Assembly: GCF_013122565.1 (NCBI RefSeq)
Contig: NZ_CP053258.1
Origin: Escherichia coli
Lineage (GTDB): Bacteria > Pseudomonadota > Gammaproteobacteria > Enterobacterales > Enterobacteriaceae
Length of the DNA: 64,000 nucleotides
Reading direction: 5' to 3' (one strand)
Under the pieces are notes generated by a model. It worked only from the letters and a program-made list of their open reading frames with translations, was not told the origin of the DNA and searched no databases. Below, in pieces: positions 23,979-48,486 of the stretch. Positions within the stretch are counted from its first letter, which is position 1. Every line of letters starts with the position of its first letter. The translations under genes and the position numbers were made by a program.

Positions 23979-23998
23979 CGGATAGATAAATGAAAATG

Positions 23999-24030
23999 CC
24001 CGATGCGCTTAACGTCCATCGGGTTTTTTT
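23999..24030 (+). terminator. Rho-independent terminator of livJ
   Basis: cccgatg...catcggg stem followed by a T7 run. Confidence 0.6.
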
Positions 24031-24082
24031 ATGTTTGTCGAAATGGTTGTAGAAAGATTAAACAATCCAGGATATGCTTATT

Positions 24083-24101
24083 GTACGGTGATGTGCCGTA
24101 C
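24083..24101. promoter_or_regulatory. Palindrome gtacggtgatgtgccgtac upstream of the DUF1778 antitoxin gene; candidate autoregulatory operator
   Basis: Inverted repeat read directly, about 25 bp upstream of the ATG at 24128. Confidence 0.4.
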
Positions 24102-24127
24102 ATATTATACGGAGCAGGAGAGTTCAC

Positions 24128-24394
24128 ATGTCTGCTGTTAAAAAGCAGCGTATCGATCTGCGTTTAACTGACGATGACAAAAGTATGATTGAGGAAGCTG
24201 CAGCGATATCTAATCAGTCCGTCAGCCAATTTATGTTGAACAGCGCTTCGCAGCGGGCTGCGGAAGTGATTGAACAGCATCGGCGGGTGATCCTCAATGA
24301 GGAATCCTGGACGCGGGTGATGGATGCGCTGAGTAATCCACCGTCACCAGGTGAAAAGCTAAAACGTGCGGCAAAACGTCTTCAGGGAATGTAA
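24128..24394 (+). CDS. DUF1778-type antitoxin (AtaR/TacA-like) of a GNAT toxin-antitoxin pair
   Basis: 88-aa ORF 6 bp upstream of a GNAT-toxin-like ORF; family assignment by resemblance. Confidence 0.65.
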   Translation: MSAVKKQRIDLRLTDDDKSMIEEAAAISNQSVSQFMLNSASQRAAEVIEQHRRVILNEESWTRVMDALSNPPSPGEKLKRAAKRLQGM

Positions 24395-24400
24395 TAATTT

Positions 24401-24928
24401 ATGGATGATCTGACGATAGAGATTCTGACCGATGATGCAGATTATGATCTACAGCGATTCGACTGCGGCGAGGAAGCGTTAAATCTCTTTCTGACGACAC
24501 ATCTAGTTCGTCAACATCGCAACAAAATTCTGCGAGCGTATATCCTTTGTCGCAACACTCCAGAACGTCAGGTGCTGGGATATTACACATTATCCGGCAG
24601 TTGTTTTGAACGAGCCGCATTGCCCTCGAAATCGAAACAGAAAAAAATTCCCTACAAAAATATTCCCAGCGTCACTCTTGGGCGTATGGCAATTGATCGT
24701 TCATTACAGGGGCAGGGATGGGGAGCAACACTGGTTGCTCATGCCATGAAAGTCGTCTGGTCAGCCTCTTTAGCAGTAGGTATTCATGGTCTTTTTGTAG
24801 AGGCGCTGAATGAAAAAGCCCATACGTTTTATAAATCGCTGGGCTTTATCCCGTTGGTCGGAGAAAACGAAAATGCGTTATTTTTCCCAACCAAATCCAT
24901 TGAACTGCTTTTTACACAGAGCGATTAA
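24401..24928 (+). CDS. GNAT-family acetyltransferase toxin (AtaT/TacT/ItaT-like, tRNA-acetylating type)
   Basis: 175 aa with acetyl-CoA-binding RMAIDRSLQGQGWGATLV motif; paired with the upstream DUF1778 ORF. Confidence 0.7.
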   Translation: MDDLTIEILTDDADYDLQRFDCGEEALNLFLTTHLVRQHRNKILRAYILCRNTPERQVLGYYTLSGSCFERAALPSKSKQKKIPYKNIPSVTLGRMAIDRSLQGQGWGATLVAHAMKVVWSASLAVGIHGLFVEALNEKAHTFYKSLGFIPLVGENENALFFPTKSIELLFTQSD

Positions 24929-29854: not shown

Positions 29855-30568
29855 ATGGAAAAAGTCATGTTGTCCTTTGACAAAGTCAGCGCCCACTACG
29901 GTAAAATCCAGGCGCTGCATGAGGTGAGCCTGCATATCAATCAGGGCGAGATTGTTACCCTGATTGGCGCGAACGGGGCGGGAAAAACCACCTTGCTCGG
30001 CACATTATGCGGCGATCCGCGCGCCACCAGCGGGCGAATTGTGTTTGATGATAAAGACATTACCGACTGGCAGACGGCGAAAATCATGCGCGAAGCGGTA
30101 GCGATTGTCCCGGAAGGGCGTCGCGTCTTCTCGCGCATGACGGTGGAAGAGAATCTGGCGATGGGCGGCTTTTTTGCCGAACGCGACCAGTTTCAGGAGC
30201 GCATAAAGTGGGTATATGAACTGTTTCCACGTCTGCATGAGCGCCGTGTTCAGCGGGCAGGCACCATGTCCGGCGGTGAGCAGCAGATGCTGGCGATTGG
30301 TCGCGCGCTGATGAGCAATCCGCGTTTGTTGTTACTTGATGAGCCATCGCTCGGTCTTGCGCCGATTATCATCCAGCAAATTTTCGACACCATCGAGCAG
30401 CTGCGCGAGCAGGGGATGACTATCTTCCTCGTCGAGCAGAACGCCAACCAGGCGCTGAAGCTGGCGGATCGCGGCTACGTGCTGGAAAACGGTCATGTGG
30501 TGCTTTCCGATACCGGCGACGCGCTACTGGCGAACGAAGCGGTGAGAAGCGCGTATTTGGGCGGGTGA
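29855..30568 (+). CDS. livF: Branched-chain amino-acid ABC ATPase LivF
   Basis: 237 aa from the MEKVML Met, Walker A GANGAGKTT. Confidence 0.93.
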   Translation: MEKVMLSFDKVSAHYGKIQALHEVSLHINQGEIVTLIGANGAGKTTLLGTLCGDPRATSGRIVFDDKDITDWQTAKIMREAVAIVPEGRRVFSRMTVEENLAMGGFFAERDQFQERIKWVYELFPRLHERRVQRAGTMSGGEQQMLAIGRALMSNPRLLLLDEPSLGLAPIIIQQIFDTIEQLREQGMTIFLVEQNANQALKLADRGYVLENGHVVLSDTGDALLANEAVRSAYLGG

Positions 30569-30686
30569 TTTATCAATAACCCGGCAGCTAAGTTCTGCCG
30601 GGTTATTTGTCTGTATACAGACTTGTTTCAACTGACCGGGAGGATTAAAAACTGTCCACTTATTTGCCACGGAAAGGTTCCCTCCC

Positions 30687-31433
30687 ATGCATTATGCCGT
30701 TGTCGCCATGCTTGAAATGCTTTGCTGTATCCACGCTTACCGTACCGGACAAGAGCGATATTGGTTTTTTATCATCTTCTGTTTTCCAGTGATTGGCTGC
30801 GTAGCGTATTTTGTCATGGTGATGCTGCCAGAAACGGGCGCTGACCGTCACGGGCGTACCTTTCTGATGCGCCTGCAGAACAAACTCAACCCTGAGCGCC
30901 ACCTGCGCAAATTAACCGAAGAACTGGCGATTGCCGAGACGAATCAAAACCATTATGCGTTGGCTAATGAACTGGCGCGTCTGGGGCGTTATCACGAAGC
31001 CGTTCCCCATTATCAGCAGGCGTTAAGCGGGATATTCGCCCATGAAGCGGCAATGATGCTAAGCCTGGCGCAGGCACAGTTTGCTATTCAGGAGTTTGCC
31101 GCCTGTCAGCAGACGCTGGAAGATGTGATGCGTTATAACCCTGATTTTCAGTCGGCAGACGGGCATTTGTTATTTGCCAGAACGTTAGCCGCACAAGAAA
31201 AATACGCTGATGCGGAAAGTGAGTTTGAAGTGTTGGTTTCTTATTACCCCGGCCCGCAGGCGCGTATTTACTATGCGGAAATGCTGGCGAAAATGAGTCG
31301 GTTACGTGAAGCCAACGAGCAGTATGTTGCTGTAGTTGATACGGCTAAACGCTCAAGACCTCATTATAGAAAACACCACCGGGAATGGATTAAGACCGCC
31401 AATGAACGGTTGAAGCAGAGTGTGGTGCAATGA
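30687..31433 (+). CDS. Hypothetical membrane protein: N-terminal PLDc_N-like two-TM domain plus cytoplasmic helical (TPR-like) repeat domain
   Basis: 248-aa ORF; N-terminus YWFFIIFCFPVIGCVAYFVMV resembles the PLD-nuclease N-terminal domain family; C-terminus predicted helical. Confidence 0.55.
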   Translation: MHYAVVAMLEMLCCIHAYRTGQERYWFFIIFCFPVIGCVAYFVMVMLPETGADRHGRTFLMRLQNKLNPERHLRKLTEELAIAETNQNHYALANELARLGRYHEAVPHYQQALSGIFAHEAAMMLSLAQAQFAIQEFAACQQTLEDVMRYNPDFQSADGHLLFARTLAAQEKYADAESEFEVLVSYYPGPQARIYYAEMLAKMSRLREANEQYVAVVDTAKRSRPHYRKHHREWIKTANERLKQSVVQ

Positions 31434-31654
31434 AAATCTTCTTTGCCGTTAGGCCAGTGTCGCGGCAATCTTTTGTTAAAATTGAAAAATGTAGCTTTCA
31501 TCGGGCAGCAAAACTGGACGCAGAATTTGCTGCCATTTTTGCTCTTCATGGTAAGGAGTTCTGGCGATTAGCTGGCCGTTAATCGCCTCTTTTCAGTGCA
31601 TTCTCGGGATATCCGTGCCCCATCTCCCATTTTCCCTCACCCGTACCGTCACCG

Positions 31655-34937: not shown

Positions 34938-36008
34938 ATGGCAGGACTGAAATTACAGGCAGTAACCAAAAGCTGGGATGGCAAAACCCAGGTGATTAAA
35001 CCGCTGACCCTTGATGTGGCGGATGGCGAATTTATCGTGATGGTCGGGCCGTCTGGCTGCGGGAAATCGACGCTGCTGCGCATGGTTGCCGGGCTGGAGC
35101 GGGTGACCGAAGGCGATATCTGGATCGACCGCAAGCGTGTCACCGAAATGGAGCCGAAAGATCGCGGGATTGCGATGGTGTTCCAGAACTACGCGCTTTA
35201 TCCGCATATGAGTGTTGAAGAAAACATGGCGTGGGGGCTGAAAATTCGCGGCATGGGCAAGCAGCAAATTGCCGAACGGGTTAAAGAAGCGGCGCGTATT
35301 CTGGAGCTGGACGGCCTGCTCAAACGTCGCCCGCGCGAGCTATCTGGCGGTCAGCGCCAGCGTGTGGCGATGGGCCGCGCGATTGTGCGCGATCCGGCGG
35401 TGTTCTTGTTTGATGAGCCGCTCTCTAACCTCGATGCCAAGCTGCGCGTGCAGATGCGTCTTGAACTGCAACAGCTGCACCGTCGCCTGAAAACGACTTC
35501 ACTCTACGTTACTCATGATCAGGTTGAGGCGATGACGCTCGCCCAGCGAGTAATGGTGATGAACGGCGGCGTTGCCGAACAGATTGGCACGCCAGTGGAA
35601 GTTTACGAAAAGCCCGCCAGCCTGTTTGTAGCGAGTTTTATCGGCAGTCCGGCGATGAACCTGCTGACAGGCCGCGTGAATAATGAAGGCACGCATTTCG
35701 AACTGGACGGCGGTATTGTGCTGCCGCTAAACGGTGGCTACCGTCAGTATGCCGGGCGTAAAATGACTCTCGGCATTCGCCCGGAACATATAGCGCTAAG
35801 CTCGCAGGCAGAAGGTGGTGTGCCGCTGGTGATGGACACGCTGGAGATCCTCGGCGCTGATAACCTGGCGCACGGACGCTGGGGCGAACAGAAGCTGGTG
35901 GTACGGCTGGCGCATCAGGAGCGCCCGACGGCAGGCAGCACGCTGTGGCTGCATCTGGCGGAAAATCAGCTGCATCTTTTTGATGGTGAAACAGGACAAC
36001 GAGTATGA
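34938..36008 (+). CDS. ugpC: G3P ABC ATPase UgpC
   Basis: 356 aa from the MAGLKL Met, Walker [10 protein letters not shown]. Confidence 0.92.
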
Positions 36009-36748
36009 GTAACTGGCCTTATCCCCGCATCGTCGCTCATCGTGGCGGCGGTAAGCTGGCCCCCGAAAACACCCTGGCGGCAATCGACGTCGGGGCAAAA
36101 TACGGTCATAAGATGATCGAATTTGACGCGAAGTTATCGAAAGATGGCGAGATCTTTCTGCTCCATGATGACAACCTCGAACGCACCAGCAACGGCTGGG
36201 GCGTCGCGGGTGAACTGAACTGGCAGGATTTACTGCGCGTGGATGCGGGCAGTTGGTACAGCAAAGTGTTTAAAGGTGAGCCGCTGCCGTTGCTTTCGCA
36301 GGTGGCGGAACGCTGTCGTGAACACGGGATGATGGCGAATATCGAAATCAAACCCACCACTGGCACTGGACCATTAACGGGCAAAATGGTGGCGCTGGCG
36401 GCACGCGAACTGTGGGGCGGTATGACGCCGCCGCTGCTGTCATCGTTCGAAATTGATGCTTTAGAAGCCGCACAGCTGGCGGCACCGGAACTGCCGCGTG
36501 GTTTATTGCTTGATGAATGGCGCGACGACTGGCGAGAACTGACCGCGCGGCTGGGCTGCGTCTCTATTCATCTCAATCATAAGTTACTCGATAAAGCGCG
36601 AGTGATGCAGTTGAAAGACGCCGGATTACGGATTCTGGTTTATACCGTCAATAAACCCCAGCGCGCGGCAGAGTTGCTGCGCTGGGGCGTGGATTGCATC
36701 TGTACCGATGCGATTGACGTGATTGGTCCGAACTTTACGGCCCAATAG
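36005..36748 (+). CDS. ugpQ: Glycerophosphodiester phosphodiesterase UgpQ
   Basis: 247 aa with HRGG active-site motif. Confidence 0.92.
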
Positions 36749-37175
36749 TTTTCAACGGAATGTCAGGCTGCGGCGTGCTGGGCTGATTCAGCATGTCGCC
36801 GTTTCTCCTCTCCGGCAGCATATGCTGCTGATTCAACGAACTATCCGGATTACGGTTGCTGTTTAACATCCCGCCGTTGGTGTTGGGCAGCATTTGCTGC
36901 CGGGCGGGATTTCGCTCCCCCGGCTGTGACTGCAACACCCGCTGAGAATTATTGTTTATCTGGTTTTCTAAATGCTGCTGTTGCAACTGAGTTTGCGTTT
37001 TCAGTTGCTGATTCAGCATCCCTTTTTGCTGGATTTGCTGCGTTTGCATCTGGGTTTGCATCCGCTGCTGGCTGGGGATCTGATATCCCGGCTGGTTGGG
37101 GTTATTCAGAGTATTAATGGGCTGTGCAAAGCCGACAAACGGCAGGAGTGCCGTAAGAATCAGAAGTCGTTTCAT
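36735..37175 (-). CDS. yhhA: Gln-rich secreted protein YhhA
   Basis: 146 aa with signal peptide and Q-rich low-complexity body. Confidence 0.85.
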
Positions 37176-37294
37176 CGCGTATCCTCCTCTGAAGATATCC
37201 TTTAAGTTTACTCGCTTCCCGACAAAACGATGATTAATTCAGAGTTATATACCAGGCTTAGCTGGGGTTGCCCCTTAATCTCTGGAGAATAACG

Positions 37295-39037
37295 ATGATA
37301 AAACCGACGTTTTTACGCCGGGTGGCCATTGCTGCTCTGCTCTCAGGAAGTTGTTTTAGCGCCGCCGCCGCGCCTCCTCCGCCACCTGTTTCTTATGGCG
37401 TGGAGGAAGATGTCTTCCATCCGGTACGCGCGAAACAGGGGATGGTGGCGTCTGTCGATGCCACTGCCACCCAAGTGGGGGTAGATATTCTAAAGGAGGG
37501 CGGGAATGCCGTTGATGCTGCCGTGGCAGTGGGCTACGCGCTGGCGGTAACGCATCCGCAAGCAGGGAATCTGGGCGGTGGTGGTTTTATGCTGATCCGC
37601 TCGAAAAATGGCAACACCACGGCTATCGATTTCCGCGAAATGGCACCCGCCAAAGCGACCCGCGATATGTTCCTCGATGATCAGGGCAACCCGGACAGCA
37701 AAAAATCACTCACTTCGCATCTGGCTTCCGGCACGCCCGGTACGGTAGCAGGTTTCTCGCTGGCGTTGGATAAATACGGCACCATGCCGTTGAACAAAGT
37801 GGTGCAACCGGCGTTTAAACTGGCACGCGATGGTTTTATCGTTAACGACGCGCTGGCTGACGATCTCAAAACCTACGGCAGTGAAGTGCTGCCGAATCAC
37901 GAAAACAGCAAGGCTATCTTCTGGAAAGAGGGCGAACCGCTGAAAAAGGGCGACACGCTGGTGCAGGCGAACCTGGCAAAGAGCCTGGAGATGATTGCTG
38001 AAAACGGCCCGGACGAATTCTATAAAGGCACGATTGCGGAACAGATCGCCCAGGAGATGCAGAAAAACGGTGGCTTGATCACTAGAGAAGATTTAGCGGC
38101 CTATAAAGCGGTGGAACGTACACCGATTAGCGGCGAATATCGCGGGTATCAGGTTTACTCGATGCCACCGCCATCTTCCGGTGGGATTCATATCGTGCAG
38201 ATCCTCAATATCCTGGAAAACTTCGATATGAAGAAATACGGCTTTGGCAGTGCCGACGCGATGCAAATCATGGCAGAAGCCGAGAAATATGCCTACGCCG
38301 ACCGCTCGGAATATCTTGGCGACCCGGATTTTGTCAAAGTCCCGTGGCAGGCGTTGACCAATAAAGCCTATGCCAAATCTATTGCCGATCAAATAGATAT
38401 CAATAAAGCGAAGCCATCCAGCGAAATTCGTCCTGGCAAGCTTGCGCCTTATGAGAGTAATCAAACTACCCATTACTCAGTGGTGGATAAAGACGGTAAC
38501 GCGGTGGCGGTGACCTATACGCTGAACACCACCTTCGGTACGGGCATTGTCGCGGGCGAGAGCGGTATTCTGCTTAATAACCAGATGGATGATTTCTCCG
38601 CCAAACCGGGCGTACCGAACGTTTACGGGCTGGTGGGCGGTGATGCCAACGCCGTCGGGCCGAATAAACGCCCGCTGTCATCGATGTCACCAACCATTGT
38701 GGTGAAAGACGGTAAAACCTGGTTAGTGACTGGTAGCCCAGGCGGTAGCCGGATCATCACTACCGTGCTGCAAATGGTGGTGAATAGCATCGATTATGGT
38801 ATGAATGTCGCCGAAGCGACCAATGCACCGCGTTTCCACCATCAATGGTTGCCGGACGAGCTGCGTGTCGAAAAAGGGTTTAGCCCGGATACGCTCAAGC
38901 TGCTGGAAGCAAAAGGTCAGAAAGTGGCGCTGAAAGAGGCGATGGGCAGTACACAAAGCATTATGGTTGGGCCGGACGGTGAGTTGTACGGCGCATCCGA
39001 CCCGCGCTCGGTGGATGATTTAACGGCGGGTTATTAA
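37295..39037 (+). CDS. ggt: Gamma-glutamyltranspeptidase
   Basis: 580 aa from the MIKPTF Met with signal peptide; GGT family. Confidence 0.93.
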   Translation: MIKPTFLRRVAIAALLSGSCFSAAAAPPPPPVSYGVEEDVFHPVRAKQGMVASVDATATQVGVDILKEGGNAVDAAVAVGYALAVTHPQAGNLGGGGFMLIRSKNGNTTAIDFREMAPAKATRDMFLDDQGNPDSKKSLTSHLASGTPGTVAGFSLALDKYGTMPLNKVVQPAFKLARDGFIVNDALADDLKTYGSEVLPNHENSKAIFWKEGEPLKKGDTLVQANLAKSLEMIAENGPDEFYKGTIAEQIAQEMQKNGGLITREDLAAYKAVERTPISGEYRGYQVYSMPPPSSGGIHIVQILNILENFDMKKYGFGSADAMQIMAEAEKYAYADRSEYLGDPDFVKVPWQALTNKAYAKSIADQIDINKAKPSSEIRPGKLAPYESNQTTHYSVVDKDGNAVAVTYTLNTTFGTGIVAGESGILLNNQMDDFSAKPGVPNVYGLVGGDANAVGPNKRPLSSMSPTIVVKDGKTWLVTGSPGGSRIITTVLQMVVNSIDYGMNVAEATNAPRFHHQWLPDELRVEKGFSPDTLKLLEAKGQKVALKEAMGSTQSIMVGPDGELYGASDPRSVDDLTAGY

Positions 39038-39043
39038 TATCTT

Positions 39044-39070
39044 AAGCCCTCTCCCGGTAGGTGAGGGCTT
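39044..39070. terminator. Bidirectional terminator hairpin between convergent ggt and yhhY
   Basis: aagccctc...gagggctt inverted repeat. Confidence 0.5.
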
Positions 39071-39097
39071 AAATGACAAACTTAGATTGCAAATTAT

Positions 39098-39586
39098 CTA
39101 TTTCACCCGCGCCATATAATACGCATCGACATATTCACCATTACGAAAAGCGTAATTTTTGCCGGTGCCTTCTATGTGAAATCCCAATTTTTTATAGACT
39201 GTGATTGCCGGGGCGTTATCCGCAAACACCGTCAACTCAATACGATCTATCCGTAACCAGTTGTCGCACATTTCAATCAATTCGCGGATCAGGGCGCTGG
39301 CGATGCCGCGGTTGTGCCAGCGGGAGTCAACACAGATACCAAAAGTTGCAACATGACTGCGGCGTGGGCCTTGATAAGCCTCAATGAAAAGATGACCCAC
39401 TACGATGCCATCAATGCAGGCAACCAGTTGTTTAAAACCTTGGCGATCTTTCAATCTTTCTGGCCACCAGCCTTCCGAAGGATGAGGTAGTTGTAGCGTG
39501 TTGCAATACACCTCCGGCTGGGCGTGAATCTGCCTGATGGCCTCGTAATCGCGCGTTTCAGCATGGCGTATCACTATCTCACTCAT
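39098..39586 (-). CDS. yhhY: GNAT N-acetyltransferase YhhY
   Basis: 162 aa from the MSEIVIRHA Met. Confidence 0.88.
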   Translation of the reverse strand: MSEIVIRHAETRDYEAIRQIHAQPEVYCNTLQLPHPSEGWWPERLKDRQGFKQLVACIDGIVVGHLFIEAYQGPRRSHVATFGICVDSRWHNRGIASALIRELIEMCDNWLRIDRIELTVFADNAPAITVYKKLGFHIEGTGKNYAFRNGEYVDAYYMARVK

Positions 39587-39683
39587 TCCTTTGTCCTCTT
39601 TGGGGTAAATGTCCCTTTCAACATCATTGACTTTCAAATGCGAGTCAAATGCATTTTTTTGCAAAAAGTGTTGGACAAGTGCG

Positions 39684-39705
39684 AATGAGAATGATTATTA
39701 TTGTC
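39684..39705 (+). promoter_or_regulatory. Fur box in the ryhB promoter
   Basis: aatgagaatgattattattgtc resembles the Fur consensus gataatgataatcattatc, immediately upstream of ryhB. Confidence 0.65.
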
Positions 39706-39707
39706 TC

Positions 39708-39800
39708 GCGATCAGGAAGACCCTCGCGGAGAACCTGAAAGCACGACATTGCTCACATTGCTTCCAGTATTACTTAGCCAGCCGGGTGCTGGCTTTTTTT
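39708..39800 (+). ncRNA. ryhB: Iron-responsive small RNA RyhB
   Basis: Sequence matches remembered RyhB (gcgatcaggaagaccctcgcggagaacctgaaagcacgacattgctcacattgcttccagtattacttagccagccgggtgctggctttt), ending in a hairpin plus T-run, in the yhhY-yhhX intergenic region. Confidence 0.88.
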
Positions 39801-39918
39801 TTGATCTTTCGTTCTCAATTTATCCACGGGAGTGCTTGTGTTCGTTATGCGCACTCCAGTAGGAACCACGTCCGCTTTGCGCTAAGGTGTAAATAACCAC
39901 CTTAAAAAGGACGAAATC

Positions 39919-40956
39919 ATGGTCATCAACTGCGCCTTTATTGGCTTCGGCAAAAGCACCACCCGTTACCATCTGCCGTATGTACTTAACCGCAAGGATA
40001 GCTGGCATGTCGCGCATATTTTTCGCCGCCATGCAAAGCCGGAAGAACAAGCTCCCATTTACTCTCATATCCATTTCACCAGCGATCTCGACGAAGTGCT
40101 AAACGATCCCGATGTTAAGCTGGTTGTTGTCTGCACCCATGCGGACAGCCACTTCGAGTACGCGAAGCGCGCGCTGGAAGCCGGGAAAAATGTGCTGGTC
40201 GAAAAACCGTTCACCCCGACGCTTGCCCAGGCGAAAGAGCTGTTTGCTCTGGCGAAAAGTAAAGGGCTGACCGTCACGCCATATCAGAATCGTCGCTTTG
40301 ATTCCTGCTTCCTGACGGCGAAAAAAGCGATTGAAAGCGGCAAGCTGGGAGAGATTGTCGAAGTGGAAAGCCATTTTGACTATTACCGCCCGGTGGCAGA
40401 AACCAAACCTGGGCTGCCGCAGGATGGCGCGTTCTATGGCCTTGGTGTGCATACGATGGACCAGATTATTTCTCTGTTCGGTCGCCCGGATCACGTCGCT
40501 TATGACATCCGCAGCCTGCGTAATAAAGCCAATCCTGACGACACCTTTGAAGCGCAGCTGTTTTATGGCGACCTGAAAGCCATCGTCAAAACCAGCCATC
40601 TGGTGAAAATCGATTATCCGAAATTTATCGTTCACGGTAAGAAAGGTTCGTTTATTAAATACGGTATCGACCAGCAGGAAACCAGCCTGAAGGCTAATAT
40701 TATGCCGGGCGAACCGGGATTCGCAGCGGATGATTCGGTCGGTGTGCTGGAGTATGTCAATGACGAGGGTGTGACGGTCAGAGAAGAGATGAAGCCAGAG
40801 ATGGGCGATTACGGGCGCGTTTATGATGCGTTGTATCAAACCATCACCAACGGTGCGCCAAATTACGTCAAGGAATCTGAAGTTCTTACCAATCTGGAAA
40901 TCCTTGAACGCGGATTCGAGCAAGCCTCTCCCTCCACAGTGACTCTCGCGAAGTAA
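39919..40956 (+). CDS. yhhX: Gfo/Idh/MocA-family oxidoreductase YhhX
   Basis: 345 aa. Confidence 0.9.
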   Translation: MVINCAFIGFGKSTTRYHLPYVLNRKDSWHVAHIFRRHAKPEEQAPIYSHIHFTSDLDEVLNDPDVKLVVVCTHADSHFEYAKRALEAGKNVLVEKPFTPTLAQAKELFALAKSKGLTVTPYQNRRFDSCFLTAKKAIESGKLGEIVEVESHFDYYRPVAETKPGLPQDGAFYGLGVHTMDQIISLFGRPDHVAYDIRSLRNKANPDDTFEAQLFYGDLKAIVKTSHLVKIDYPKFIVHGKKGSFIKYGIDQQETSLKANIMPGEPGFAADDSVGVLEYVNDEGVTVREEMKPEMGDYGRVYDALYQTITNGAPNYVKESEVLTNLEILERGFEQASPSTVTLAK

Positions 40957-45003: not shown

Positions 45004-45015
45004 TTACTGCGACAA

Positions 45016-45050
45016 ATTACTGCGAGCTTGCTCGCAGTAATTCATTTCTC
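45016..45050 (+). terminator. Rho-independent terminator of gntU
   Basis: Perfect 12-bp stem attactgcgagc/gctcgcagtaat followed by T-rich sequence. Confidence 0.6.
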
Positions 45051-45142
45051 TTTTCTCCTCTCTTCATCTTTTTGATCTCTCTCGCAAATTTACCTGCTAA
45101 TAATCCGTTCTAATCACTGCCTAAAGATCGCAGGAGATAAAG

Positions 45143-47239
45143 ATGGAAAAGCACGGAGCTGAATTGCTTTTACAGCGGATGTTAGGCAATACCACCGCTA
45201 CTTTCAGGGAAGGTCAATGGGAAGCCATGGACGCGGTGGTGAACCGACGGCGAAAACTGCTGGTTGTCCAACGCACTGGCTGGGGGAAAAGCGCCGTGTA
45301 CTTCATCTCCAGTAAAATCTTCCGCGATCGCGGCGCTGGCCCGACAATTATCATCTCTCCTTTGCTTGCCCTGATGCGTAACCAGGTTGCCGCCGCTGAA
45401 CGGTTAGGTATTACGGCTGAAACGTTGAATTCTACAAACAGGGAAGAATGGCAGCGCATTAGCGATAAGTTGCTGCAAGGTGCGGTCGATTGCTTGCTGG
45501 TTTCCCCGGAACGTTTGGCAAACCAGGACTTTATCGAAACGGTTTTATATCCTATAGCCGATCGTATTGGTTTGCTTGTGGTCGACGAGGCGCACTGCAT
45601 CTCTGATTGGGGCCACGATTTTCGCCCGGATTACCGACGTATATTAGATATTTTGCGCCAACTGCCTGCGAATACCCCTGTTCTGGGTACAACCGCGACA
45701 GCGAATAACCGTGTCGTTGAGGATATCCGTCAGCAATTGGGTGACATTGTGATTCAGCGTGGAACGCTGGCTCGCGAAAGTTTGGCGCTTGATGCCTTAG
45801 TCTTAGGTGAACAGTCATCCCGTCTGGCATGGTTAGCAACGGTTATCCCTCAGTTTTCCAAATCGGGAATTGTTTATACCCTGACTACTCGCGATGCCGA
45901 ACTTGTCGCCGAGTGGTTAAGGACAAATGGTATCAGTGCATTTGCTTACTACAGCGGCGTGACTTGTGAAGGCGCGGAAGATTCTAATACTGCCAGGGAA
46001 TATCTGGAGCAGGCGCTGCTGGCAAATAAAATCAAAGTGCTGGTCGCGACGACGGCATTAGGTATGGGGTTTGATAAACCTGATTTAGGTTTCGTCATTC
46101 ATTATCAAATGCCGGGGTCTATTGTCGGTTACTACCAACAGGTAGGGCGTGCCGGGCGTGCTATAGATTCCGCTGTTGGCATATTGCTTTGTGGTGGTGA
46201 AGACCGCGCTATTCATAAATTCTTCCGTGAAAGCGCCTTTCCTGCGGAGGCGCAAATTCATGAAATACTCAACGTACTTAGCGAGAATGACGGTCTTACC
46301 CTACGAGGCATTGAACAACGGACGAATCTCCGTTATGGGCAAATAGAAAAAGCACTGAAATTATTGGTAGCTGAAAATCCATCGCCTGTGGTGTATACCG
46401 AGAAATTATGGCGCAGAACTATCGTCAGTTTCTCTCCTGACCATGAACGAATTAACCATTTGATGAATCAGAGAAAAAGTGAGCTGGCAGACGTTGAAAG
46501 CTATGTCACGACCAAGGAGTGCAAAATGCAATTTCTGCGCCGCGCACTCGATGAGCCAAGTGCCGAACGTTGTGGTAAATGTAGCAGTTGTCTTCAGCAT
46601 CCGTTGTTGTCGCCCGATATTGATAGCGGCTTACTCCATGCGGCAAATTTATTTATTAAACACGCTGACCTGCCATTAAATCTCAATAAACAGGTAGCAT
46701 CTGGGGCTTTTACGCAATACGGATTTAAAGGGAACTTGCCTGCGGGTTTACAAGGATCTACGGGGCGAGTCCTTTCTCGTTGGGGAGATTCCGGGTGGGG
46801 AAAGCAGGTAGCACAGGAGAAAAAAACGGGGCGATTCAGTGATGAGCTGGTGGAGGCATGTGCGGAAATGGTTCGCCAACGCTGGAATCCGCATCCTGAA
46901 CCAACCTGGGTATGCTGCGTTCCTTCATTAAGGCACCTCGACCTGGTTCCTAATTTTGCCCGGCGACTGGCGGCGAAACTTGGCTTACCTTTTATTGATG
47001 CCATTGAAAAAGTCGTGGACAATCCACCGCAGAAAATGCAGCAAAACCGTTTTCACCAGTGTCAAAATCTCGACGGGGCGTTTGTGATTACCCCTCCTTT
47101 GATGCCAGGTCCGGCGTTGCTGGTTGACGATATCGTGGATTCTGCATGGACGCTGACAGTTCTGACAGCACTGTTACGCCAGGCAGGTTGCCCGACGGTT
47201 TATCCTCTTGCCCTTGCTTCTACCTCGGTAAAAAATTGA
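45143..47239 (+). CDS. RecQ-family DNA helicase fused to a C-terminal phosphoribosyltransferase-like domain (PsyrT/RqlH-like toxin or effector candidate)
   Basis: 698 aa with helicase motifs QRTGWGKS, VVDEAHCISDWGHDFRPDY, VLGTTATAN, VLVATTALGMGFDKPD, YYQQVGRAGR; Cys cluster CKMQ...CGKCSSC; C-terminal LLVDDIVDSAWTLTV PRTase-type motif. Confidence 0.75.
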   Translation: MEKHGAELLLQRMLGNTTATFREGQWEAMDAVVNRRRKLLVVQRTGWGKSAVYFISSKIFRDRGAGPTIIISPLLALMRNQVAAAERLGITAETLNSTNREEWQRISDKLLQGAVDCLLVSPERLANQDFIETVLYPIADRIGLLVVDEAHCISDWGHDFRPDYRRILDILRQLPANTPVLGTTATANNRVVEDIRQQLGDIVIQRGTLARESLALDALVLGEQSSRLAWLATVIPQFSKSGIVYTLTTRDAELVAEWLRTNGISAFAYYSGVTCEGAEDSNTAREYLEQALLANKIKVLVATTALGMGFDKPDLGFVIHYQMPGSIVGYYQQVGRAGRAIDSAVGILLCGGEDRAIHKFFRESAFPAEAQIHEILNVLSENDGLTLRGIEQRTNLRYGQIEKALKLLVAENPSPVVYTEKLWRRTIVSFSPDHERINHLMNQRKSELADVESYVTTKECKMQFLRRALDEPSAERCGKCSSCLQHPLLSPDIDSGLLHAANLFIKHADLPLNLNKQVASGAFTQYGFKGNLPAGLQGSTGRVLSRWGDSGWGKQVAQEKKTGRFSDELVEACAEMVRQRWNPHPEPTWVCCVPSLRHLDLVPNFARRLAAKLGLPFIDAIEKVVDNPPQKMQQNRFHQCQNLDGAFVITPPLMPGPALLVDDIVDSAWTLTVLTALLRQAGCPTVYPLALASTSVKN

Positions 47240-48441
47240 TGAATCTTTCAGCCAATGCACAAGCAACTCTCCTGCTAACCAGCGATTTTTCTCGCGCGGC
47301 GGCGAGTGAGTATAACCCTCTTAGTAATAGTGAATGGGGGAAGTTTGCATTATGGCTGAAGCACCAACGTATCAGTCCCGCCGATCTTCTGGTGCCGCAA
47401 CCGCAAGAGAAACTTACAGGCTGGAGCGATCCGCGTATTTCTCAGGAGCGTATTCTTGGCTTGCTGGCGCGTGGTCATAGTCTGGCGTTGGCGGTAGATA
47501 AGTGGCAACGCGCCGGTTTATGGATCTTAACCCGCGGAGATGCCGATTATCCCGTTCGCTTGAAAAACCGATTGCGAACGGATGCACCTCCCGTTTTATT
47601 TGGCTGTGGGAATAAAGCATTACTGCAAGCGGAAGGTATGGCGATTGTTGGCTCGCGAGATGCTCCGACTGACGATTTGCGCTATACCCAACAACTGGCC
47701 GCGAAACTGGCCCAACAGGGGATTTGCGTTATCTCTGGTGGTGCGCGAGGTATTGATGAATGTGCAATGGCGTCGGCACTGGAGGCCGGGGGAACTGCCG
47801 TTGGCGTATTAGCTGATAGCTTGTTAAAAACGAGCACGTTAGTGAAATGGCGTGAAGGGCTTATAGCAGGCAACCTGGTGTTGATTTCGCCGTTTTACCC
47901 AGAGGTACGTTTCACTGTCGGCAATGCGATGGCGCGGAATAAATATATTTATTGCCTTGCTGAAAGCGCAATGGTTGTACGTGCGGGAATGTCCGGTGGA
48001 ACGATAACCGGGGCGATGGAAGCATTAAAACATCAGTGGCTGCCTGTGCAGGTTAAACCAAATCAGGATATGCAATCAGCCAATTCACGATTAGTAGAAA
48101 ATGGGGCGTCATGGAGTACTGAACAGGCTGAGAATGTGACGTTCAGACTGCCAGACGTTACTGGGCTGATTTATGACAAAGCACTCCGTAACGCTCAACC
48201 AGAACTGTTTTCGCTGCATGAAGATGACGCAAATTACGCAGTAATGCCCGCGCATACGCCTGTCGATTTTTATCAACTCTTTGTGGCGGAACTGGCGATC
48301 CTTGCAAAGGAATCGATAAGTATTGAAAGGCTGGCGTCTTGTACTGGTTTAACCATCGAACAAATTCGTGTGTGGCTGAACCGCGCAGAAGAAGAGGGAA
48401 GGGTTATTCGATTGGGCGAAGGTCATTATCAGTTCAGGTAA
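47239..48441 (+). CDS. DprA/Smf-like (SLOG Rossmann) protein, PsyrA/RqlI/ShosA-like antitoxin or partner candidate
   Basis: 400 aa from the ATG overlapping the upstream stop (tTGATG at 47237-47241); DprA-type core GSRDAPTDD...ISGGARGIDECAMASAL...GGTAVGVLADSL...FTVGNAMARNKYIYCLA. Confidence 0.7.
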   Translation: MNLSANAQATLLLTSDFSRAAASEYNPLSNSEWGKFALWLKHQRISPADLLVPQPQEKLTGWSDPRISQERILGLLARGHSLALAVDKWQRAGLWILTRGDADYPVRLKNRLRTDAPPVLFGCGNKALLQAEGMAIVGSRDAPTDDLRYTQQLAAKLAQQGICVISGGARGIDECAMASALEAGGTAVGVLADSLLKTSTLVKWREGLIAGNLVLISPFYPEVRFTVGNAMARNKYIYCLAESAMVVRAGMSGGTITGAMEALKHQWLPVQVKPNQDMQSANSRLVENGASWSTEQAENVTFRLPDVTGLIYDKALRNAQPELFSLHEDDANYAVMPAHTPVDFYQLFVAELAILAKESISIERLASCTGLTIEQIRVWLNRAEEEGRVIRLGEGHYQFR

Positions 48442-48444
48442 TAA

Positions 48445-48480
48445 AACAGGTGCCGCGTCTGGTTGTGTGCAGCACCTGTT
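48445..48480. terminator. Hairpin between the DprA-like gene and convergent yhgN; bidirectional terminator candidate
   Basis: aacaggtgc...gcacctgtt inverted repeat, T-rich flank on the minus strand. Confidence 0.45.
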
Positions 48481-48486
48481 TGAACC

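Follow-up and report, generated by a model that had tools for sequence, protein, structure and literature searches.

The region between ggt and yhhY raises a question about the order of events in E. coli. In K-12 MG1655, the stop codons of yhhY and ggt lie 3,454 bp apart, and RefSeq annotates yhhZ, yrhA split by IS1E, yrhD and yrhB between them; in the window, that is, the whole stretch of DNA analysed here (64,000 nucleotides), the same two stops are separated by one short spacer, and it has to be asked which arrangement is the original one and how the other came about. The sequence-only reading of the window had given the K-12 segment as yhhZ, yrhA, IS1 and yrhB, which agrees with RefSeq except that the small gene yrhD was missing, and had proposed that this strain may represent the empty site; K-12, with its 3,454 bp, does not share the tight junction. 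Positions 39038–39097 are read here as the unoccupied ancestral allele of a multi-allelic variable site between ggt and yhhY, the contents of which are most likely swapped by recombination in the flanks, and a probability of about 0.88 is given to this reading.

The ggt–yhhY junction and its hairpin

The features of the junction, in coordinates of the window, are as follows:

37292–39037, + strand: ggt (gamma-glutamyltransferase), 581 codons plus the stop TAA at 39035–39037
39038–39097, no strand: convergent intergenic spacer between ggt and yhhY, exactly 60 bp, read as the unoccupied ancestral form
39042–39072, within the spacer: stem-loop TTAAGCCCTC-t-cc-cggta-gg-t-GAGGGCTTAA, presumed shared 3'-end/terminator hairpin, without a U-tract
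39098–39586, − strand: yhhY (GNAT N-acetyltransferase), 162 codons plus the stop TAG at 39098–39100
39122–39497, − strand: divergent core of yhhY, the "type B" allele, gene nucleotides 90–465

The count of about 60 bp with one hairpin between the two stops, made from the sequence alone, corresponds exactly to 39038–39097. The identity of the two genes is supported by NCBIfam profiles, with PRK09615 matching ggt at 1308 bits and the equivalog PRK10140 matching YhhY over its full length at 320.5 bits against a curated cut-off of 236; Pfam Acetyltransf_1 also matches YhhY. The mechanical open reading frame of ggt opens at a TTG at 37268 and gives 589 aa, with the PRK09615 profile beginning at its residue 10, and a 581-aa ggt is called in near-identical drafts (L056 and L057). 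The expected flanking genes ugpQ, yhhA and yhhX (yhhX at 39919–40956) were identified by NCBIfam, and the synteny of yhhY, which adjoins ryhB and yhhX, is conserved. The RyhB small RNA lies between yhhY and yhhX at 39737–39801 on the + strand (Rfam, 83 bits), with its terminator at 39776–39794 and a promoter-like site at 39672–39701; this intergenic region is 100% identical to that of K-12, although the adjoining yhhY is 18% divergent. Searches of the 64 kb window by tblastn and blastn for YhhZ, YrhA, YrhB, the DUF4225 protein found at this site in O157:H7, and island DNA gave no hits.

Homology between the window and K-12 breaks off precisely with the stop codon of ggt and sets in again 3 nt outside that of yhhY, and the yhhZ-yrhA-yrhD-yrhB segment of K-12 (b3442–b3446) occupies exactly the empty site of the window, between the same two stops. 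Unlike the K-12 segment, the window keeps the pre-insertion spacer, including 19 nt beside yhhY that the island alleles have lost, and its hairpin on the ggt side is a variant different from that of the K-12-type island alleles.

The folding energy of the hairpin of the window is −22.7 kcal/mol for the + strand (z = −4.1 against dinucleotide shuffles) and −22.3 kcal/mol for the − strand (z = −3.9). When 21 spacers from nine genera were folded, each formed a stem-loop that is stable on both strands, with z between −2.2 and −8.9, and the sequences of these 21 hairpins are unrelated, with REP-like palindromes among them. Since a hairpin is found in 21 of 21 spacers despite unrelated sequences, the structure at the convergent ggt–yhhY junction appears to be under selection. 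Shared stem-loops are known as bidirectional intrinsic terminators between convergent bacterial genes from full-length RNA profiling in E. coli, and in the canonical form the stem is preceded by an A-tract and followed by a U-tract, so that both transcripts carry a U-run. The window resembles such shared terminators in that a single G+C-rich hairpin, stable on both strands, stands centrally between the convergent stops and is kept across genera despite sequence turnover; unlike the canonical form, its stem is followed only by UU on each strand. No U-tract was seen on either strand, the stem being followed by AAUGACAAAC (+) and GAUAUUAAUA (−) with just two U each; the consensus terminator scan misses the spacer hairpin but calls the RyhB terminator about 700 bp away; and Rfam at E ≤ 1 returned no family for the spacer hairpin, its hits being RyhB and two sub-threshold chance matches.

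A canonical intrinsic terminator was thus rejected for this hairpin, which drew no call in the terminator scan, and termination is kept only as something that we infer. What the sequence-only reading had called a bidirectional hairpin is accurate as to shape, since the stem-loop is stable on both strands; a terminator role for it finds neither a U-tract nor a scan call. A bidirectional terminator is a reasonable interpretation that is slightly favoured, and the hairpin may equally be a 3'-end stabiliser or a Rho-assisted stop, both of which are just as compatible with the evidence.

Polarity and alleles of the site

One genome per GTDB species was scanned for YhhY, and 46 loci were retrieved. 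Of about 35 species representatives in the Enterobacteriaceae, nearly all have a convergent ggt directly after yhhY; the adjacency was found in E. albertii, E. whittamii, Escherichia sp. E1V33 and two more species representatives labelled "E. coli", as well as in about 30 species of Citrobacter, Enterobacter, Klebsiella, Kluyvera, Lelliottia, Pluralibacter, Trabulsiella and others. The outgroup spacers between ggt and yhhY measure 34–122 bp, with Buttiauxella (1.5 kb), Franconibacter (2.9 kb) and one Pluralibacter (369 bp) as exceptions to the tight spacing. In the three Escherichia outgroups E69, E1V33 and E. albertii, the spacer is 60–62 bp long and collinear with that of the window, with the stem and the right half in common, and those of E69 and E1V33 are the 60 bp of the window with 3–6 substitutions. 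Because outgroup species have ggt and yhhY adjacent with homologous spacers, the tight junction is, on sequence comparison, the ancestral state, and the K-12 segment is a derived insertion. The proposal that the strain of the window carries the empty site is thereby borne out. In E. albertii (L007, 6457–6518), the stem is kept and the loop GCCTACCGG is the reverse complement of the loop region CCGGTAGG of the window, which looks like an inversion inside a conserved stem.

The frequency of the alleles was determined in 5,426 complete E. coli genomes. The window-type hairpin occurs in 913 of them in any context and in 910 with the tight junction. The K-12-type hairpin, GGTTAGCGGCCCTCTTCGTGGGAAGAGGGC, is present in 4,520/5,426 in any context, and 97/5,426 combine it with a tight junction of 59 bp, for example, APEC O2-211. 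At least 80% of the IS-free island of 2,686 bp was found in 3,758/5,426, about 70% of E. coli, and an island match of any extent in 4,094/5,426; a distance between ggt and yhhY of at most about 1 kb was found in 1,238/5,426. There is also an allele with yrhB only, a 431 bp insert with its own yhhY-proximal sequence (EC6030, L053, 2001–2431; WCHEC115106), for which the class size of about 230 genomes was obtained by subtraction from the 1,238, and the class of other inserts, about 400 genomes, is likewise a figure by subtraction. In O157:H7 (DEC4E, L054, 9031–10885), an unrelated cassette of 1,855 bp with a DUF4225 protein is found at the same site, and a partial island allele with 56% coverage plus IS1 exists as well. 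It can be seen that the ggt–yhhY site is multi-allelic and that the allele of the window is a common minority form.

The island, its insertion point and a probable exchange of site contents

The IS-free island has a G+C content of 33.7%, compared with 50–55% in the flanks, with a sharp drop at both edges. The YhhZ/TssD protein of ETEC4067 matches Pfam T6SS_HCP at 46 bits against a cut-off of 23.5, while its C-terminal region reaches 17.3 bits with Pfam HNH, below the cut-off of 21.4; YrhB belongs to the immunity family Imm35 in Pfam at 77.6 bits, and YrhA and YrhD matched no Pfam family. YrhA is presumed to be an immunity protein from its position directly downstream of the toxin gene. It has been reported that YhhZ is an Hcp1-family His-Me finger toxin of His-Me finger group 32 (PMC5714182), and effectors of the Hcp-ET1 type with an HNH domain have been described with cognate and orphan immunity genes (PMC6730261). 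The genes of the K-12 island (Hcp plus the sub-threshold HNH match; Imm35) agree with these published Hcp-ET effectors and YhhZ (PMC6730261, PMC5714182), and the K-12-type insert appears to be a foreign, AT-rich, orphan type VI effector/immunity island of the Hcp-ET1 type. A 4 kb contig, CABHOW010000200.1 (L004), labelled as an "uncultured Flavihumibacter sp." MAG and serving as a GTDB species representative, carries a K-12-like yhhX-yhhY-yhhZ-yrhA-yrhD order at 100% protein identity, without IS1E and with an intact yrhA; the contig is almost certainly a contaminant from E. coli in a MAG of Bacteroidota. Islands free of the IS are also found by the thousand in the E. coli genomes.

The tight spacer of APEC O2-211 consists of the K-type hairpin joined directly to the window-type right half, TTAAATGACAAACTT..., and this structure places the insertion point directly 3' of the hairpin, which is adjoined by the stop codon of yrhB. 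The yhhY-proximal end of the island still has TTGAATGACA, compared with TTAAATGACA in the empty site, and in the island alleles, the 19 nt at the end of the empty spacer, AACTTAGATTGCAAATTAT, have given way to a segment of 32 nt with a second hairpin. A repeat search over the island and 100 bp of each flank gave no paired direct or inverted repeats at the island ends, and the IS-free island encodes no integrase, transposase or recombinase. A target-site duplication of the whole island was sought by comparing the junctions of K-12, ETEC4067 and UTI89 and was rejected, as only AT-rich chance matches appeared; the ATTTTG shared at the K-12 junctions was also rejected as a duplication, being not conserved in the IS-free islands. 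The search for target-site duplications in K-12 that the sequence-only reading had suggested thus succeeds for IS1E, whose 9 bp duplication GACATTAAA inside yrhA is the sole transposition signature, and finds none for the island as a whole. Repeats, duplication and recombinase, by which a site-specific or transpositional insertion would be recognised, are all missing from the island. Since it has neither a duplication nor terminal repeats, the term "empty site" does not mean an unoccupied att site or transposon target here.

A mechanism can be proposed in which each allele has a simple relation to the others. In the empty allele, ggt and yhhY would share the 60 bp spacer, with the stem-loop most likely serving as a common transcript 3'-end or termination structure; the K-12-type allele would have arisen by placement of a 2.7 kb cassette immediately on the yhhY side of the hairpin, and K-12 would additionally have received IS1E in yrhA. 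The contents of the site (empty, yrhB only, full island, DUF4225) most likely pass between strains via homologous recombination in the ggt and yhhY flanks, which would also explain the polymorphism and mosaicism of ggt and especially of yhhY. The absence of integrase, duplication and terminal repeats, together with allele swaps between near-identical flanks, makes homologous recombination likely, in a model drawn from mosaicism in nine sequences. The final identity matrix for the flanks was taken from a MAFFT alignment. The ggt genes of K-12 and UTI89 are 95.2% identical, values of about 95% are found between ordinary E. coli strains, and the gene is mosaic at the 200 bp scale. Strain 14EC033 (empty site, type B yhhY) and O157:H7 (DUF4225, type A) are 98.4% identical in ggt and 99.5% in the yhhX region, and their yhhY genes are 82% identical; NQ3 (empty site, type A) and UTI89 (island, type A) are 98.7% identical in ggt and 99.7% in the yhhX region. 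In general, yhhY is 82–97% identical between strains with neighbouring genes that are 97–99.7% identical.

Polymorphic core genes are known to flank hypervariable E. coli loci that are recombination hotspots, such as rfb/gnd and hsd. Like the surroundings of those loci, ggt and yhhY are unusually polymorphic between strains; unlike them, they flank no large antigen or restriction locus but a very small cassette site, and one yhhY allele class lies beyond the variation seen across the whole of the sampled genus. The neighbourhood, including ggt (37292–39037) and ugpQ-yhhA (36005–37175), looks like a recombination hotspot.

With such exchange, the lineage of the window would either never have received the island or have regained the empty allele by recombination. 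The latter course, in which an ancestor carried the island or another insert that was lost, most plausibly by replacement of the whole site with an imported empty allele through recombination in ggt and yhhY, is possible but rather unlikely; the sequence of the spacer would then be ancestral and its presence in this strain derived. The site and the yhhY core have indeed changed hands between backgrounds that are otherwise near-identical, all four combinations of island presence and yhhY type are found, and the yhhY of the window is itself a rare mosaic allele with breakpoints within the gene; the 97 K-type tight junctions moreover resemble recombinants with an island-type left and an empty-type right part, type B yhhY being present in most of the ones sampled. 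However, the spacer of the window holds neither a scar nor an island remnant, there is no positive sign of an island-bearing ancestor, and the window-type hairpin, which comes with a tight junction in 910 of its 913 genomes and is common to E69, E1V33 and E. albertii, is most simply explained by vertical retention.

That the island was precisely excised or deleted in the lineage of the window, leaving a clean junction, can be given very little weight. Deletions within the island do occur, as the yrhB-only allele and the allele with 56% coverage and IS1 indicate, but flanking repeats and a recombinase are both missing, and since the island alleles lack the 19 nt AACTTAGATTGCAAATTAT beside yhhY and have another hairpin on the ggt side, a deletion cannot regenerate the spacer of the window, so excision is effectively refuted. 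An assembly or sequence artefact that only makes ggt and yhhY look adjacent is refuted, as the identical spacer is present in 910 complete E. coli genomes, a homologous junction exists in other species, and the same spacer recurs base for base in the independent drafts GCA_018578885.1 and GCA_052983875.1, which match the window at 98.8% identity over 6.5 kb and encode an identical YhhY. The unoccupied ancestral allele remains the preferred reading of the junction.

The divergent yhhY and other variable sites

Over the whole gene, the yhhY of the window is 81.6% identical to that of K-12, and a column-by-column alignment confines the type B divergence to about 39122–39497, with the gene ends and flanks at 94–100%. 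The type B core is 77–79% identical to yhhY of K-12, E. albertii, E. whittamii and other Escherichia representatives, compared with 89–94% among those representatives themselves and 69–72% between type B and other genera. The dS between type B and type A is about 0.97, for which K-12 against E. albertii (0.36) and K-12 against Citrobacter (2.0) serve as yardsticks; the dN/dS of 0.146 indicates purifying selection and hence a functional type B yhhY. Type B is carried by 156 of the 5,426 complete genomes (~3%), including strain 042, APEC O2-211 and porcine ETEC. It is found with both tight spacers and with the island and is thus not linked to the content of the site; the idea that type B always goes with the tight junction was rejected on ETEC4067, which has type B together with the island.

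With regard to the donor of type B, the GTDB species representatives give at most 84% amino-acid identity, and among 5.8 billion proteins only clusters labelled E. coli exceed 85%. A paralogue as the source of gene conversion was rejected, as yhhY-like DNA occurs at a median of once and at most three times per genome. Type B may have entered by introgression from an unsampled lineage or may be an old polymorphism that has been maintained. YhhY presumably detoxifies aminoacyl-nucleotide antibiotics; the literature search on its function found only a lysine-acetyltransferase screen. That the acceptor specificity of a detoxifying acetyltransferase, encoded next to a hotspot for toxin cassettes, has been the target of balancing or diversifying selection that preserved an ancient polymorphism is a speculative and rather doubtful explanation. 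No description of a dimorphic yhhY was found in the searchable literature, and type B is the only mildly unusual thing at the locus.

A literature search with yhhY plus ggt and with yrhA/yrhB found no paper on polymorphism of the ggt–yhhY site. The case is routine, belonging to a known kind of presence/absence polymorphism of accessory islands with an island that is already annotated, and is of little importance for biology at large. Its value lies in the fixed polarity, with the K-12 reference as the derived and the window as the ancestral state, in an insertion point defined to the base, and in a multi-allelic site that is probably exchanged through flank recombination; as unusually polymorphic core genes, yhhY and ggt could also mislead phylogenies or typing schemes that use them.

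The possibility that the window comes from a separate Escherichia species was considered and rejected, the flanks being 96–99% identical to E. coli compared with 92–95% to other species, and the ggt identity of about 95% was likewise dismissed as a species signal because such values are normal between ordinary E. coli strains. Over 16 kb from liv to ugp, the best complete genome is at most 97.6% identical to the window. Several further differences were observed in this neighbourhood. Between livJ and panM (23979–24921), the window has about 940 bp, compared with only 184 bp in UTI89. About 3.5 kb between gntU and yhgN (45004–48486) is missing from UTI89, and O157:H7 has a frameshifted gene of a RecQ-family helicase there. 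Between livF and ugpB (30567–31609), the window has about 1 kb extra relative to UTI89 and is collinear with O157:H7, in which a gene of a tetratricopeptide-repeat protein is annotated; at the same position, APEC O2-211 carries a Phd/Doc toxin–antitoxin pair, making this another small variable site.
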